Positions 4,538-51,117 are shown, counted from the first letter of the stretch. The stretch is 51,117 nt of DNA from Bacteroidales bacterium (GCA_026984135.1 JALSSR010000152.1:1-51117), one strand, 5' to 3'. The notes: generated by a model from the sequence alone, not told the origin. Program-made: numbers and translations.

Positions 4538-7500
4538 ATGAAAAAGTTAATTGTAGCAATTGCATTGCTAATAACTACCGGTTTGTTTGCCGGAAACGGT
4601 TATGAAGCAACATTCGAGCAACCTGAAAATGGTATTTATCAGGTGAATTTTACAATAGGTAATTATGATTTGACTGAGGTTGCATTTGATGGTGTAACCT
4701 ATTCAAAGATAATTTTTGACGGAAGTGTGCATACAAATATGAAAGGTTTTGCAGAACTTCCTTTCGTCAGTGCATCGGTTATGTTATCACCGGATAAAAA
4801 TGTTTCATTGAAGGTGATTTCATCGGATTATGTGGATATTGACCTTGAGAACCCTATGCTTCCTTCAAGAGGTGTTATTTACAGGGATCAGGACCCTTCG
4901 GCAATACCTTATGAAATAAGTCCGTCTTCATTACGGGATAATTGGTATCCCCAAAATCTGGCAAGGAACACAGCACCGTTTATCATTAAAGATATAAGAG
5001 GTACTTCCGTTTATGTTTATCCTTTCAGATATAATGCCGTACAAAATAAGTTACGTATATATAAATCCGTAACGGTTCAACTGATTGAAAATGAAACTCA
5101 ACCGGTTAATCCTCTTGCCAAAAAACCTTCAAAAATATTACGTGAGATGGACGGGATTTATTCTTCACTCTTTATCAATTATTCCGAAAATAAGGATGAC
5201 CTTACAATAGGACAATTCGGAGATATTTTGGTAATATGCACCGACAGGGATGAGAATGCCATTCAGCCTTATATTCAGTGGAAAAGAGAAAAAGGTTATA
5301 ATGTTTCGTTGGAAGTTGTGGCAACGGGAACAAATGTAAAAACACTTGTTCAAAATGCTTATGATGCAAATAACGATTTGCTTTATGTTCAATTGGTGGG
5401 CGATTGGGCGGATATAAAATGTGATGTGTTAAACGGCTCTTCTCCAATGGACCCCCAACTTGGCTGTGTTGTCGGAAATGATGAAGTTGCGGATATTACA
5501 GTTGGAAGGATATCCTCAAATTCACCTTCGGATGTTACGGTTCAGATTGATAAAATCATTAACTATGAAAAAAATCCCGATATCGGAGCAAGCTGGTATA
5601 GCGCTGCTATAGGAATTGGGTCGGATCAGGGGCCCGGTGACGACGGTGAACTTGACAAGGAGCATATTCAGGTGATATGGGATGATAAGCTTGATCCTTT
5701 TACCTACGAAACATATTCCCCGATTTATGATCCTTCCGCATCCGCGGCAATGGTGTCCACTGCCGTTAATGACGGTGCCGGTATAGTCAACTATTGCGGA
5801 CATGGTTCTCCGACTTCCTGGGGAACAACGGGTTTCAGCAACAATGACGTTTCTGCACTTACAAATGGAGATAAATTACCCATAATCTTTTCCGTTGCTT
5901 GCAATAACGGTAATTTTCAGGATCCGGGCGACTGTTTCGGTGAAGCCTGGTTAAAGAAAGAAAACGGAGGAGCCGTTATGTTTCTCGGAGCTACTATTAG
6001 CCAGCCATGGGACCCACCTATGCGGGGCGAAGACTATTTTGACGATATTCTTACGGGTGGATACGATTACTCCCAGCATCCGGATCAAAACGGAATTTCT
6101 ACGGACGAGGGTAGAACGACTATAGGTGCAATTGTGTTTAACGGTTTTGTATTAATGACTACGGAATCCAACGGGGCAAGCGATTGGGAAACGGCCAAGA
6201 CCTGGACTATTTTCGGAGATGCCTCTATGCAACCGCGTACGGATATACCCGGTGCAATTACTCTTTCAAATGAAACGGTAATGGCCGGTATTCCTTATAC
6301 TACAACGGTAAGTGGTCCCGATGGACCTGTTGAAGGGGCAATGGTTTGTATTTCAAACGGAACGGATTACTTTTCAGGTGTTACGGATGCAAGCGGAAGT
6401 GTCTCAATAAATCATACTTTGGTTCCGGGTGCGGCAAAGAGGGTAGTAACGGGCTTTAATCTCGAAATCGTTTATGAAGATATTACGGTTGCATCTTCAA
6501 ATACACCCTGGATTGTTGCAGGCGATTGTGTGATTGACGATTCCAACGGGAACAACAACGGACAGGCCGATTACGGTGAATCCGTATTGCTTAATGTTAC
6601 AGCTGAAAATGTCGGAACGGTTGCCGCTTCGGGAATTAATGCTGTAATTACTTCTACCGATCCTTTTATCACAATTACGGATGATTCATTCTCGTACGGT
6701 GATATTGCCGGTGGCCAGACCGTTAGCGGCGACGGTGCGTTTGCCGTTACAATTGCGGGCGATGCTCCCGATAATTATAATGCTGTTATTGATATTGAAT
6801 TTACCGACGGAAATAAAGATTCATGGACATCTTCATTTACAATTGATTTACATGCTCCTGTTATGGAAATGGGAAATTATACAATTGATGATGCTTCCGG
6901 CAACGGAAACGGAAATATTGACCCGGGCGAAACCGTTGAAATTACAATACCCGTTTTAAACTCCGGTTCTTCGGATGCTTATTCCGTTGTCGGTGAGCTT
7001 GTATGTAATGATGCTTATATTACAATTGCAAACGCTTCCCAAAATTACGGAGATATAAATGCTGCCGGACAAGCACAGGCAGTCTTTACCGTAACGGCTG
7101 AAGCAGTTACTCCTGTGGGACATCAGGTTACTTTTGATTTTGAAATTTCCGCCGATTTGATCACTTCCGTACAGGAATCTTTTGATTTGGTGATTGGCCA
7201 GATACCTGTAGTTGTAATTGACCTTGACGGTAATACCAATTCGGGGCCTGCTATGGTTGATGCTATGGCAAATAATGGTGTTGCAGCCGAATATGTTGCA
7301 TCCTTTCCCGATGATCTGAATTTGTATTCTTCGGTATTTCTGTGTCTTGGTGTTTATCCTGATAATCATACTCTTACGGATAGTGAAGGGCAGTCTCTGG
7401 CAGACTATCTAAATGCAGGCGGTAACCTTTATATGGAAGGTGGAGATACCTGGTTTTACGATCCGCAAACAGTTGTCCATCCTATGTTCAGCATTGATCC

Positions 7501-47403: not shown

Positions 47404-47434
47404 TTTGAAAAGTAGCAAAAAAATTGTATATTTG
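47404..47434 (+). promoter_or_regulatory. sigma-A promoter for the FISUMP gene
   Basis: TTTG at 47404-47407, 19-nt spacer, TATATTTG at 47427-47434. It overlaps the ORF-track start at 47424, which favours the GTG start at 47553. Confidence 0.7.
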
Positions 47435-47552
47435 CCTGTCCGAAACAGAAATATGCACTTGCATTGCGAAGATGTATTTTATGAAATTTAAAAATCCGCT
47501 TGACGATATATGTAATTATTATAGATTTATAAACTCATTAAAATCATATCCT

Positions 47553-48899
47553 GTGAAAACAAAAACTTTACTTTCGATTTTGGCACTTGCAACAGTAATA
47601 AGTGCTTTTGCACAAAAACCCACAATGGAACTGACCTTTACGGCGGAAAACAGCGGACAATACGTCCCGATGGACAGCATTCTCATTGAAAACCTCACAC
47701 AGGGCGGGGACACAACGCTTTATCCACCCGACACAACACTTTCGTTGGAATATAACGTGGGTATCAATGAAACTGACTTATCAAAAAACACATTTTCCGT
47801 TTCACAAAATTACCCCAATCCGTTTAATGAAAAAACCACGGTTAATTTGGTTTTGCCGGGGAAAGATAATATTAAAATCACCTGCCGGAATATGCTTGGC
47901 ATCGAGCTGGCACATTATGAAAAGGTTTTGAACCGGGGCAACCATTCCTTTATTTTTTATTGCGGTGCCGGAAGCCAATACCTGCTTACCGTAACAGGAA
48001 AACAAACAAGCAAAACCGTTAAAATGCTGAATTCAGGCAGTAATATAGCCAAAAGTGGAAAATGCAAAATAGTTTATAACGGGAATGTAACCGGTTTTAA
48101 ATCCAGCGAAGCCCTGAACGGTTTTGTGTTTAACCTTGGCGATGAATTGAAATATACTGCTTATACCGATGTGGAAGAAACAGAAAAAATTGATTCTCCC
48201 ACTGGCAGCCAAACTTACACATTTCAATTTGACGGATGGGATCCCTGTCCTGGAATGTCCATTATTACCGACATTGATGGCAATACCTACAATACGGTTC
48301 AAATAGGCAACCAGTGCTGGATGAAGGAAAACCCGAAAACCACAACCTACCGAAACGGCACAGCAATACCTAATATAACGGATGCTAATGCTTGGGAAAG
48401 TCTTACAACCGGAGCCTATGTATGGTATGGTAATGGTATTAGCTGGAAAGGCCCGTATGGTGCTTTGTACAACTGGTATGCAGCGGTTGATGCCAACGGT
48501 CTTTGCCCAACGGAATGGCACGTACCGACAGATGATGAATGGACAGCATTGACCGATTTCATTGGCGGAACAGGCTCGCCCCACAGCAACGAGCTAAAAT
48601 CGTGTAGGCAGGTCAATTCGCCTTTGGGTGGAGGTTGCAATACAACGGAACATCCAAGATGGAATAACCCGCAAAATGGAGTTTTCGGTACTGACGATTA
48701 TGGATTTTCAGGTCTTCCGGGCGGCTACCGTAACTTCAGTGGCTATTTCGACAGCGTTGGCTACTCCGGTGGCTGGTGGTCTTCTACGGAGTCCTCATCA
48801 GCCAGTGCCGGCCGCTTCCTGAGTTACAACGACGGCTACGTGTTCGTGAACTACTACAGTAAGCAGGATGGTTTTAGCGTCCGTTGTCTCAGGGATTAG
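47553..48899 (+). CDS. FISUMP (Fibrobacter succinogenes major paralogous) domain protein, probable DGR target
   Basis: Signal peptide MKTKTLLSILALATVISAFAQ from the in-frame GTG; TDIDGNTYNTVQIGNQCWMKEN, YGALYNWYA, CPTEWHVPTDDEW, GLPGGYR, WWSST, GFSVRCLRD. Confidence 0.88.
   Translation: MKTKTLLSILALATVISAFAQKPTMELTFTAENSGQYVPMDSILIENLTQGGDTTLYPPDTTLSLEYNVGINETDLSKNTFSVSQNYPNPFNEKTTVNLVLPGKDNIKITCRNMLGIELAHYEKVLNRGNHSFIFYCGAGSQYLLTVTGKQTSKTVKMLNSGSNIAKSGKCKIVYNGNVTGFKSSEALNGFVFNLGDELKYTAYTDVEETEKIDSPTGSQTYTFQFDGWDPCPGMSIITDIDGNTYNTVQIGNQCWMKENPKTTTYRNGTAIPNITDANAWESLTTGAYVWYGNGISWKGPYGALYNWYAAVDANGLCPTEWHVPTDDEWTALTDFIGGTGSPHSNELKSCRQVNSPLGGGCNTTEHPRWNNPQNGVFGTDDYGFSGLPGGYRNFSGYFDSVGYSGGWWSSTESSSASAGRFLSYNDGYVFVNYYSKQDGFSVRCLRD
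48720..48896 (+). other. Candidate DGR variable region at the 3' end of the FISUMP gene
   Basis: Of 59 codons, 31 end in C, 16 in T, 10 in G and 2 in A. Variable-looking positions fit A-to-N derivatives of AAC/AAT codons. Confidence 0.7.
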
Positions 48900-48938
48900 G
48901 ACGCTTTGACAATTTGTCTATTTGACTATTTTTTTATT

Positions 48939-48952
48939 GCCCCGTAAGGGGT
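48939..48952 (+). promoter_or_regulatory. GC-rich hairpin downstream of the variable region (DGR-type cis stem-loop candidate)
   Basis: GCCCC-GTAA-GGGGT, 40 nt after the stop, preceded by three 8-mers (TTTGACAA, TTTGTCTA, TTTGACTA). Confidence 0.5.
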
Positions 48953-49049
48953 CGAATTTTTGCGAAAGGTGAGCGCAGAATCAAACTTGTTTGAATTCTG
49001 CCGAGCCAAACAAAAATCACTGAAAGTAAATTTTTCTTGTATGGGATTA

Positions 49050-49250
49050 CATTATGATTTCCCTGATAAACAAAGGCTAACCAAACAAAGTAGACAAAGG
49101 TTTATGAAAAAGTTCGGTAAATACGATAAAATGTTAAAAAACGGTTTATGGTCACAAGAGGAATATGCCGGGCATATTATTCCGCTTATTGCTTTCACAA
49201 ACCATGCAAACACAAAACAATTAAGGATGAAACATATTGAAAAAACGGAA
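49050..49250 (+). pseudogene. Probable C-terminal remnant of a DGR-type reverse transcriptase
   Basis: FPDKQRLTKQSRQRFMKKF...GLWSQEEYAGHIIPLIAFTNHANTKQLR resembles, from memory, the thumb/C-terminus of Bacteroidota DGR RTs. No YxDD core and no proper start are present. Confidence 0.6.
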
Positions 49251-49725
49251 ACCGCCAATAGGCCACACTCCCGTCATTGCGAGGGATTTAGAGGGGGCAA
49301 TGGGCGCAGGCATCCCGTGGCAATATGTTTGATATGAAAAGGCGGCCAAAATTGCCAACCGTCAGACTGCGCAACAACCTAAAATTTCATCAGAGATAAT
49401 TATCGGCTTGTAAAATCTAAAAAATATTGAATCCGAAATTTGTTGTACATTTGGGACTCTTAAACACCTGGATATGAATATACCGAAAGAAAACAGGTTT
49501 GCGAAAAGCAAACTTGATTTCTTTCGAGTCCCATCTTAGACGTGGATGCTCGACAAAGTCGGCGTATTAACTGGTTCTAAGCAGCTTTGCGTTGCAAACC
49601 TGATAAGATCCAGTATAACAGGAAGGAATTTGCAAATTTTAGTGGGGTTATTGCGTGAACTCCCGTTACCTGCAAGGCAAAACGCAGTCCAAACAAAATC
49701 GAAATTAATTGAAGAAATGGTTGCG

Positions 49726-49756
49726 TTGTCCCAATTTTTATGTATTTTTGGGACAA
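49726..49756 (+). promoter_or_regulatory. Inverted-repeat operator overlapping the TA promoter
   Basis: TTGTCCCAA-N13-TTGGGACAA overlapping the -7 box TATTTTTG at 49743-49750. Confidence 0.7.
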
Positions 49757-49767
49757 ATTAATAAGAA

Positions 49768-50385
49768 ATGACTGTTTCAAGTAAAATAGAGAATATAATT
49801 ATTAAATCGAAAAAGGGGAAACTCTTATTTGTTTCTGATTTTTCTCAATATGGTAATTATGATACAGTTAGGAAAGCACTTCAACGATTAACAGATAAAG
49901 GAATAATTTTAAGAATTTCAAAGGGAATTTATTATTATCCGAAAACAGATGAACTTCTTGGCATTTTATATCCAACAGCAGCAGAAATTGGAAAAGCAAT
50001 CGCAAAACGAGATAAAGCAAGAATAATTCCGACAGGAGCATATGCTCAACATTTACTTGGATTATCTACACAAATTCCAATAAATATTGTTTACCTGACT
50101 GATGGCTCAGCACGAAAAGTAAAAATAGGCAATCAAACAATTATTTTCAAAAAAACAAGTCCGAAAAATTTGAGTTTTAAAAGTAAATTAAGCAGTTTAA
50201 TAATCCAAGCCTTAAAATCTAAAAAAGAAAATAACATTACCCAAATTGAAAAACTAAGGTTGACTGAAATTATTAGGCAATCAAATGAAAAGGAAAAAAT
50301 AAAAAAGGACATTCAAAATGCACCCGTTTGGATACAAAAAATCGTATTAGAAATTTTATCAGCTATTAAAGATGAATTGGCTTAA
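49768..50385 (+). CDS. DUF6088 family protein (AbiEi-like type IV antitoxin)
   Basis: VRKALQRLTDKGIILRISKGIYYYPK, AHLLGLSTQIP-type segment (AQHLLGLSTQIP), VYLTDGSARKVKIG; overlaps the AbiEii gene. Confidence 0.85.
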   Translation: MTVSSKIENIIIKSKKGKLLFVSDFSQYGNYDTVRKALQRLTDKGIILRISKGIYYYPKTDELLGILYPTAAEIGKAIAKRDKARIIPTGAYAQHLLGLSTQIPINIVYLTDGSARKVKIGNQTIIFKKTSPKNLSFKSKLSSLIIQALKSKKENNITQIEKLRLTEIIRQSNEKEKIKKDIQNAPVWIQKIVLEILSAIKDELA

Positions 50386-51117
50386 TTTACCGAAAAATAA
50401 ACAGCAAGAATTGTTTAAACAATTAAGTGTTAAAACAGGCATTCAACCGCAAGCTATTGAGAAGGATGCTTGGGTAACACTTGTATTGAGAGTTATATTC
50501 AGCTCTCAAATTTCTGAATATTTGGTATTTAAAGGCGGAACATCATTAAGTAAAGCATATAAATTAATACAAAGATTTTCGGAAGATATTGACCTTGCCA
50601 TAAGTAGAGAATATCTTGGTTTTCAAGGAGAACTAACGAAAGGACAAATTCGTAAACTTCGCAGAAAATCGCACGATTTTGTATCAAATGAAATGCTCAA
50701 TACATTAATCAATGAATTTAAAAAGCAAGATATTGACAGGCAATTATTTAATGTTGAAGTTAAGAACACTAAGATTTCAGACCAAGACCCTGAAACTATT
50801 GAAATAATTTACCAGTCCGTTTTTGAAGAATTACCGTATATAGAGCAAAAAGTATTAGTAGAAATTGGATCACGTTCATTATTAGAACCATCTGAGAACA
50901 AGGAAATAAAATCGATTATTGATGAGAATTATGCAAGTGCCCAATTTTCGGAAATAGCCTTTACAGTAAAGACAATTCGACCGGAAAAGACTTTTTTGGA
51001 AAAATTAATTTTATTGCACGAAGAATTTTCAAAACCGATTGAAAAAATTCGTTATCACAGAATGTCTAGACATTTATATGACATTGGAGAAATCATTACA
51101 ACTGACTTTGGCGTCAA
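50372..51117 (+). CDS. AbiEii/AbiGii family nucleotidyltransferase toxin, 3'-truncated by the window edge (absent from the ORF track)
   Basis: ATG at 50372: MNWLNLPKNK...AIEKDAWVTLVL...LVFKGGTSLSKAYKLIQRFSEDIDL...EKTFLEKLILLHEEF...RMSRHLYD. The frame is open to the window end. Confidence 0.92.
   Translation, partial: MNWLNLPKNKQQELFKQLSVKTGIQPQAIEKDAWVTLVLRVIFSSQISEYLVFKGGTSLSKAYKLIQRFSEDIDLAISREYLGFQGELTKGQIRKLRRKSHDFVSNEMLNTLINEFKKQDIDRQLFNVEVKNTKISDQDPETIEIIYQSVFEELPYIEQKVLVEIGSRSLLEPSENKEIKSIIDENYASAQFSEIAFTVKTIRPEKTFLEKLILLHEEFSKPIEKIRYHRMSRHLYDIGEIITTDFGV

Follow-up and report, generated by a model that had tools for sequence, protein, structure and literature searches.

A variable region of diversity-generating retroelement type at the 3' end of a Bacteroidales FISUMP gene, probably the surviving target of a decayed cassette

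In a 51,117-nt stretch of DNA from a Bacteroidales bacterium (GCA_026984135.1, JALSSR010000152.1:1-51117; hereafter the window), a gene of the FISUMP family ends in a run of codons that resembles the variable region (VR) of a diversity-generating retroelement (DGR), but the window holds no template repeat (TR) from which such a region could have been copied. This raises the question of whether the gene end was written by a DGR and, if so, whether it is still being rewritten. The original prediction had described the gene end as a VR and had offered two readings of it, one as a remote target on which a DGR acts in trans, the other as a target that has outlived its decayed DGR. Our comparisons make it highly probable that positions 48708-48897 (+) are a DGR variable region by origin, of the FISUMP/DUF1566 (CLec2) class. 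We also consider it likely that the gene is the surviving target of a locally decayed DGR and that its VR is now a frozen relic.

The target gene was delimited to 47553-48899 (+) by the list of open reading frames (ORFs), by Pfam family PF09603 and by an alignment of 37 homologues. The ORF at 47481-48899 (+) has 472 codons, and the region in question sits at its 3' end. In the 472-aa translation, the Fib_succ_major domain (FISUMP, PF09603) covers residues 273-471 (Pfam, E=4.8e-38), so that the VR falls at the C-terminal end of the domain. The protein is predicted to be secreted, with a signal peptide followed by a beta-rich N-terminal part and the C-terminal Fib_succ_major domain. In the alignment the homologues begin at MKTKTLL, equivalent to the GTG at 47553 in a frame that is open from 47424/47481; this GTG is probably the true start, with the 43-codon upstream extension (47424-47560) untranslated. 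The 37 aligned homologues are 61-76% identical and define a well-conserved protein, the last ~62 residues of which consist of invariant scaffold positions alternating with 27 hypervariable ones.

The codon composition of this gene end is unusual. Our recount of the last 59 codons gave C at the third position in 31, T in 16, G in 10 and A in 2, which reproduced exactly the earlier figures of 47 codons ending in a pyrimidine, 31 in C and 2 in A. Adenine makes up 17.8% of positions 48720-48899 compared with 32.8% of the rest of the gene. In a randomization test the protein sequence was held fixed and synonymous codons were sampled according to their usage across the genome (700,076 codons). Under this test, 12.2+-2.7 A-ending codons would be expected for the 2 observed (P=3e-5), 13.8+-3.1 C-ending codons for the 31 observed (P<1e-5), and 37.7+-2.8 pyrimidine-ending codons for the 47 observed (P=7e-4). 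Because all three deviations remain significant after synonymous redrawing, the codon bias exceeds the effect of amino-acid composition. Fifteen FISUMP paralogues are present in the assembly; the extreme signature was found in the window gene only, with milder forms in C79 and C144. The C79 paralogue (5637-6269, -) has a weaker VR signature (A 0.23, C3 0.45), carries Glu, Met and Lys at variable positions, and is followed by the same repeats as the window gene and by a hairpin nearly identical to that of a relative's DGR target (G278:C237, described below). Its VR has the appearance of a relic that is older and more eroded.

A real template was sought with a 67-residue family-consensus peptide in which the variable positions had been set to Asn, searched against 401 genomes of the order. 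The best matches (72-94% identity) proved to be real template repeats within short open frames, and six of them pair with a nearby VR in a self-BLAST scan for repeat pairs with adenine-biased mismatches. The closest template is at G278:C87:9486-9678, in another Bacteroidales genome; it encodes SGLPGGNRNNNGNFNNIGNNGNWWSSTENSSSNAWNRNLNYNNGNVNVNNNNKRNGFSVRCLRD and lies directly upstream of a gene for a 414-aa RVT_1 protein. In a codon-aware alignment of this TR with VR 48708-48897 there are 40 mismatches, 31 of them (77.5%) at TR adenines, although adenines make up 33% of the aligned TR positions (62, against 127 other positions; binomial P=9e-9). Identity outside adenines is 92.9%, and the adenine-derived changes lie within ~48726-48868. 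Seven of the other 9 mismatches are at third positions, and 6 of these are synonymous. Of the 24 AAY codons in the TR, 21 are changed in the VR, and the third base of the TR is retained at 23 of the 24, including all five AAT codons, which now read AGT (four) or GAT. The gene end therefore has AAY-derived NNY codons, adenine depletion and scaffold codons kept at synonymous sites, as expected of a VR by historical origin. The DGR signature first noticed in the window alone is thus matched by a TR that stands beside a reverse transcriptase (RT) gene in a relative and that shows the adenine bias, and the hypothetical 48-nt template proposed from the window agrees with the real one at 45 of 48 bases.

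The other FISUMP-type TRs are only 69-81% identical to the VR outside adenines, with that of G424, from the same genus as the window genome, at 71%. At least 5 of the 9 non-adenine differences from the G278:C87 TR recur in at least three other VRs of the genus, and one of them, CGG to CGT, in 11 of 13 VRs; the template that wrote the window VR was therefore probably even closer in sequence than that of G278. One difference is of another kind. The VR lacks a scaffold codon, the TGG for the Trp of a conserved 'AW', which the TR and nearly all homologues have; the gap falls between GCC (48806-48808) and GGC (48809-48811). Adenine mutagenesis cannot produce this loss, and it may weaken the fold.

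Could the gene end have arisen without a DGR, through selection for lectin-fold loops rich in Tyr, Ser, Gly, Asn and Asp, with the resemblance to a TR being ordinary homology? Mismatches at the variable positions of the family are to be expected whenever a FISUMP C-terminus is set against a TR, and the codons for Tyr, Asn, Asp, Phe, His and Cys are all NNY. The synonymous-site bias nevertheless persists with amino acids fixed (P<1e-5), the choice between C and T at third positions follows the AAC and AAT codons of the TR codon by codon, most paralogues of the same fold lack the signature, and remnants of avd and RT genes adjoin the VR. We regard such an origin as very improbable.

The family as a whole carries similar marks. 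At the 27 variable columns, 94.8% of residues are among the 15 amino acids that NNY can encode, and Lys, Glu, Gln, Met and Trp together account for 5.2%, compared with 16.9% at variable columns upstream. When the window protein is compared with eight homologues, fewer amino acids are identical in the VR (0.53-0.67) than upstream (0.72-0.80), but where amino acids are identical the same codon is used more often in the VR (0.59-0.80) than upstream (0.45-0.56). Such an inversion is what results when conserved templates overwrite a gene end repeatedly. Compared with the window VR, other VRs of the genus differ at 42-70% of template-adenine columns and at 9-18% of other columns.

The VR is followed by elements that recur after DGR targets. 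As originally described, three 8-mer repeats and a GC hairpin come after the SVRCLRD end of the protein. The tandem 8-mers start just after the stop codon, at 48905-48928 (+): TTTGACAA (48905-48912), TTTGTCTA (48913-48920) and TTTGACTA (48921-48928). The overall layout after the stop is TTTGACAATT..CTATTTGACTATTT, the hairpin, then TCGAATTTTT. At G278:C237, where a genuine DGR target is accompanied by its cognate TR, a bAvd gene and an RT, the same 8-mer motif follows the target as TAGGCTATTTGACAATTCGGCTATTTGGCTATTT. The motif was also found after the homologues L191, L193, L195, L002, L213, L086 and L097, and the post-VR element recurs after many FISUMP VRs, distant ones included. The hairpin, CCCC-GTAA-GGGG (48940-48951), forms with TCGAATTTTT a feature at 48940-48961 (+), delimited by fold predictions and by equivalents in relatives. 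In the window it is weak (4 bp, z=-1.8). At the equivalent position, stems that differ in sequence measure 7 bp in L191 and in G278:C237 and 8 bp in L002, and after each one comes TCGAA/T-run. The window hairpin looks like a DGR post-VR stem-loop by position, and it also resembles an intrinsic terminator. A search of 48700-49800 against Rfam gave only a chance-level match to RAGATH-7 (49434-49615, -; 17.4 bits against a gathering threshold of 111.8, E=0.32).

Further downstream are the remnants of a cassette, which physically link the VR to DGR genes. A spacer at 48946-49060 (+) is homologous to the spacer between VR and avd in an intact DGR of the same genus, G006:C47, which carries a target, avd, a TR and a 398-aa RT; DNA identity is 83% over 115-117 nt (E=2e-26 / 3.5e-25). 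The same spacer follows the VR of G021:C371. Identity with G006:C47 extends into the avd start codon, and through this continuity of DNA the first eight codons of avd (MGLHYDFP) can be recognized at 49040-49063 (+), with the rest of the gene deleted. The corresponding avd starts are MALYYELQ in G006 and MGLHYDLPVYK... in the homologues. A truncated avd also follows the hairpin in the closest metagenomic homologues (L191, L193, L002, L195 and L213); the 50-residue remnant of L191 is 57% identical to the bAvd of G278 (E=8e-19), and the G278 Avd itself matches Pfam bAvd (PF22296, 1e-15).

In the same frame as the avd start, at 49059-49241 (+), are the last ~61 codons of an RT gene, corresponding to the part just after the RVT_1 region; tblastx, tblastn and phmmer all detected them. 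With tblastx the remnant is 41% identical over 61 aa to the DGR RT of L174 (E=1e-13) and 43% identical to that of L173 (E=3e-11), both of which adjoin verified TR/VR pairs. A phmmer search of 1.84 billion representative proteins returned 83 matches (best E=2e-12), and the six that were checked (334-379 aa) are all RVT_1 proteins aligned at ~267-337, just after RVT_1. When six DGR RTs were compared with the whole genome by tblastn, the sole match was this C-terminal remnant (61-72 aa, 49023-49274). BLASTP of the downstream ORF against the ~400-aa RTs of G278 gave no match; the remnant belongs to another RT type. A Pfam search with the 125-aa ORF at 48960-49334 also gave none. The Avd-type and RT homologies share positions 49023-49063, which limits how exactly the junction can be placed. 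The locus thus reads target, post-VR element, spacer, avd codons 1-8 and ~61 C-terminal RT codons; the TR, the RT core and the greater part of avd are absent.

A search for these missing parts was extended to the whole assembly, a 92% complete metagenome-assembled genome (MAG) of 4.17 Mb in 307 contigs. Sensitive blastn with the VR found only paralogous gene ends. A scan that allowed either the VR base or A at each position found only poly-A-rich low-complexity DNA, and a search with the real G278 TR found no TR, so that the absence of a template noted for the window holds throughout the assembly. The RVT_1 search of the assembly gave no matches, and no Avd match was found in the genome beyond the eight codons at 49040-49063. 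A same-genome TR, a DGR-type RT and a complete accessory gene of avd or HRDC type, each of which would be looked for beside a functional DGR target, were therefore not found in this assembly. The self-BLAST scanner recovers seven true TR/VR pairs in RT loci of relatives; applied to 160 FISUMP-homologue loci (+-10 kb, from the genome and metagenome collections and mostly distant homologues), it found no TR/VR pair.

Relatives gave a similar picture. A search with the G278 TR found VR-like copies in 16 genomes of the genus, that of the window among them, but no TR of this lineage in any of the 29. One of them, G015 (98% complete, 8 contigs), has a VR of this kind and no RT at all. The other DGRs of the genus are those of G006, with a DUF1566-type TR, and G424, with a different FISUMP-type TR; a search at class level added only one further, different FISUMP-type DGR (G545). 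An RT ~900 bp downstream of the G012:C7 VR was considered as a DGR component and rejected, as it is of group II intron type with an in-frame TAG. That locus (L256, 3798-8104), also of the genus, encodes a 791-aa protein with two FISUMP domains, the second having a DGR-like VR. In the contigs of the source run, X1 (a hydrothermal vent metagenome), only the window's own contig aligned to the G278 TR and the RT matches amounted to two pieces of ~40 nt each. The viral contigs scanned for the TR pattern gave no matches.

Taken with the established DGR mechanism, these observations can be arranged into a history of the locus. A TR transcript would have been reverse-transcribed with misincorporation opposite adenines, and the resulting cDNA would have replaced the 3' end of the gene, converting AAY codons to NNY at ~24 positions on the ligand-binding face. 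As the sequence shows, the template was a close relative of the G278:C87 TR, with the same pattern of AAC and AAT codons and ~93% identity outside adenines. The cassette that followed the gene (post-VR repeats and hairpin, spacer, avd, TR and RT) would later have been deleted, leaving the post-VR element, the spacer, eight avd codons and the last ~61 RT codons. Lacking TR and RT, the VR would be a frozen allele and the protein a secreted or surface lectin-like binder of fixed specificity.

In keeping with a frozen allele, the VR is on a single unbroken 1865-nt contig in X1, and 151-nt pieces from two runs of a different study, at 48637-48787 (X2) and 48681-48831 (X3), show 0 differences from the window. 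A homologous protein, P0119, is likewise identical, VR included, on 12 contigs from at least four assemblies. This constancy bears on the alternative that the gene is an active remote target, diversified in trans by a DGR that is either encoded in the ~8% of the genome absent from the assembly or carried by a mobile element that is transient or was left unbinned, with the post-VR repeats and hairpin serving as a homing signal. Remote targets are documented for 45 of 372 DGRs, at distances of up to Mb (PMC5758913). At this locus the post-VR element is complete and the VR signature shows hardly any erosion, and the genus contains intact DGRs (G006 and G424). No target can be seen on the contig of G278:C87, the TR-RT unit that matches best, and that contig also encodes a tyrosine integrase. 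The G278:C87 TR fits the VRs of the genus (92-94% outside adenines) almost as closely as it fits the best-matching VR within G278 (95%); moreover, homologues that share one deletion scar differ mainly at adenine columns. Against these points stand the lack of RVT_1 and TR matches in the assembly, the lack of a TR of the lineage in the 29 genomes of the genus (G015, without any RT, among them), X1 contigs with no TR-like sequence beyond the window's own and just the two short RT pieces, the absence of the TR pattern from viral contigs, and the identity of the VR across three runs from two studies and of P0119 across its assemblies. We consider an active remote target unlikely. Of the two possibilities raised originally, the decayed DGR is the one favored by the cassette remnants, the missing RT and TR and the identical VR, whereas diversification in trans found no positive support.

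The mosaic make-up of the scar suggests another alternative, an imported fossil, in which VR and scar were acquired already decayed, by recombination or gene conversion with another paralogue or organism as the source, and no DGR ever acted on this gene in this lineage. Downstream of four homologous genes (L191:1725-2083, L193:4080-4470, L195:11440-11720 and L002:2590-2970) is a common deletion junction that fuses avd codons 1-46 to a stop-riddled N-terminal piece of RT, 'RNKKHRTKSANFERH'. These four scars are more alike (82-87%) than the gene bodies (66-83%), and the VRs of the four differ mainly at template-adenine columns. Possible reasons for the conservation of this scar are selection on it, movement of 3' modules between paralogues, or rewriting in trans. 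An import would also accommodate the combination, in one scar, of an Avd-type spacer and avd start with the C-terminal end of a different type of RT, and a closest TR that is found in a different family. The breakpoints of the window scar, on the other hand, differ from those of L191, L193, L195 and L002 and from that of G021, and the window is more similar to its nearest homologues in the gene body (81-82%) than downstream (56-64%), so this copy bears no sign of recent import. Overall, we judge an imported fossil quite improbable.

Several observations weigh against local decay as the explanation. The RT scrap is of the ~335-aa type that occurs with an HRDC-like accessory gene (L173/L174), unlike the spacer and avd start, which come from an Avd-type cassette such as that of G006; the scar is thus a mosaic. 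The closest TR belongs to a different family of the order, and the match to it speaks to the origin of the VR, not to a current pairing. The population comparison used assembled Logan contigs from three runs, and contigs drop rare variants, so that low-level heterogeneity in the VR would be invisible. The VR signature is also very crisp, with the two A-ending codons and 26 of 27 variable codons NNY, and the last rewriting must therefore be recent on the time scale over which the genus diverged. Binning often loses DGR cassettes and mobile elements, and with a 92%-complete MAG of 307 contigs a TR and RT may lie elsewhere.

The decayed local cassette remains our preferred explanation for the window, and a broader proposal concerns the genus. 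The orphan FISUMP VRs of the genus and of many metagenomic homologues might occasionally be rewritten in trans by mobile TR-RT units. The homologues with the common avd::RT scar, although they differ mainly at template adenines, retain the NNY signature. Units like G278:C87 may be the writers, and the conserved post-VR repeats and hairpin may be a portable landing pad. The mosaic scar, its greater conservation than the gene bodies, and the integrase beside the TR-RT unit leave room for such occasional rewriting, which we nonetheless hold to be doubtful and rather unlikely. The integrase is encoded at 288-1469 of the G278:C87 contig (L227; Phage_integrase, E=2e-42), and the contig ends 300 nt upstream of the TR. 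At 9700-9979 of L227, upstream of the TR, an avd-like frame looks broken, with 'TTTACAAACTTT' repeats alongside. G278:C201 and C87 were considered as two halves of one cassette and rejected, since the C201 gene runs past the VR and has no stop there.

The locus can be placed among known DGR systems. Targets with DUF1566, DUF823 or Fib_succ_major domains form category 'd', all with CLec2 VRs and making up 14% of DGRs (Wu et al. 2018, PMC5758913); Legionella pneumophila LdtA is an example of a CLec2 target (PMC5758913), and Fib_succ_major targets have been reported in DGRs of the human microbiome (Ye 2014, PMC4159848). FISUMP/DUF1566 targets and non-adjacent targets are thus already known (PMC5758913, PMC4159848), and remote or non-adjacent targets, frequent horizontal transfer and a share of at least 75% of mismatches at adenines are established features of DGRs (PMC5758913, PMC8144416). 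As in these targets, the last ~64 codons of a gene for a secreted or surface Fib_succ_major protein make up the window VR, which has the scaffold ...WWSSTE..SS..AW.R.L.Y..G.V....K..GFSVRCLRD, with AAY-derived positions and adenine-specific differences from a TR. Unlike them, its genome has no cognate TR, RT or complete avd but deletion scraps, and the VR appears fixed. The cassettes of the relatives (G278:C237; G424:C397 and G006:C47, both of the same genus; and the TR-RT unit G278:C87) are intact or nearly so and have the ~400-aa RT type, in contrast to the ~335-aa type of the window scrap. G278:C237 is a textbook cassette of FISUMP target, ORF, bAvd, TR and RT, and its post-VR repeats and hairpin match those of the window. 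The Treponema denticola DGR, with TvpA and remote targets, shows that a VR with no adjacent cassette can still be a target; there, however, a TR and RT in the same genome match the remote VRs, and none were found in the window assembly. As in the Mtd/IMH/hairpin arrangement of Bordetella phage BPP-1, the 3' end of the gene is occupied by the VR, homology between TR and VR continues up to the end of the coding sequence, and a short GC stem-loop lies just downstream. The fold subclass of the target differs, and the window stem is only 4 bp and terminator-like.

A C-type-lectin fold for the target can be proposed by analogy with the literature (PMC5758913, PMC4159848). PDB sequence and profile searches with the target protein gave no significant match, and an AlphaFold2 model was too poor for a fold search (mean predicted local distance difference test score, pLDDT, 45.7, with the FISUMP domain below 50). 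In the N-terminal half of the protein, a segment of the 'SQNYPNPF...' type is encoded at 47760-48030, with ~290 residues still downstream of it; several homologues give weak matches to Por_Secre_tail (a T9SS C-terminal domain) at this type of segment. Beyond the scar, ~430 nt past the RT remnant, a type IV toxin-antitoxin pair at 49768-51115 runs off the end of the window. It consists of a DUF6088/AbiEi-like gene (E=3e-66) and an AbiEii nucleotidyltransferase toxin gene (E=1.6e-30), and the acquisition of this pair may be connected with the disappearance of the DGR cassette.

If our preferred explanation is correct, the locus would document, at the level of coordinates, the death of a DGR: the VR as last written and the putative homing signal stay with the target, and avd, the template and the RT core are deleted. 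The VR is still recognizable, and the lost template is largely reconstructible, from codon statistics alone. FISUMP-domain genes are numerous in Bacteroidales MAGs (more than 5,000 homologues), and the consensus-with-Asn peptide search, which recovers real templates in relatives, should aid their annotation. Knowledge of the DGR mechanism is unchanged by the finding. The question that it raises is whether orphan VRs are ever used again in trans; if such rewriting does occur, a decayed cassette would not end diversification.

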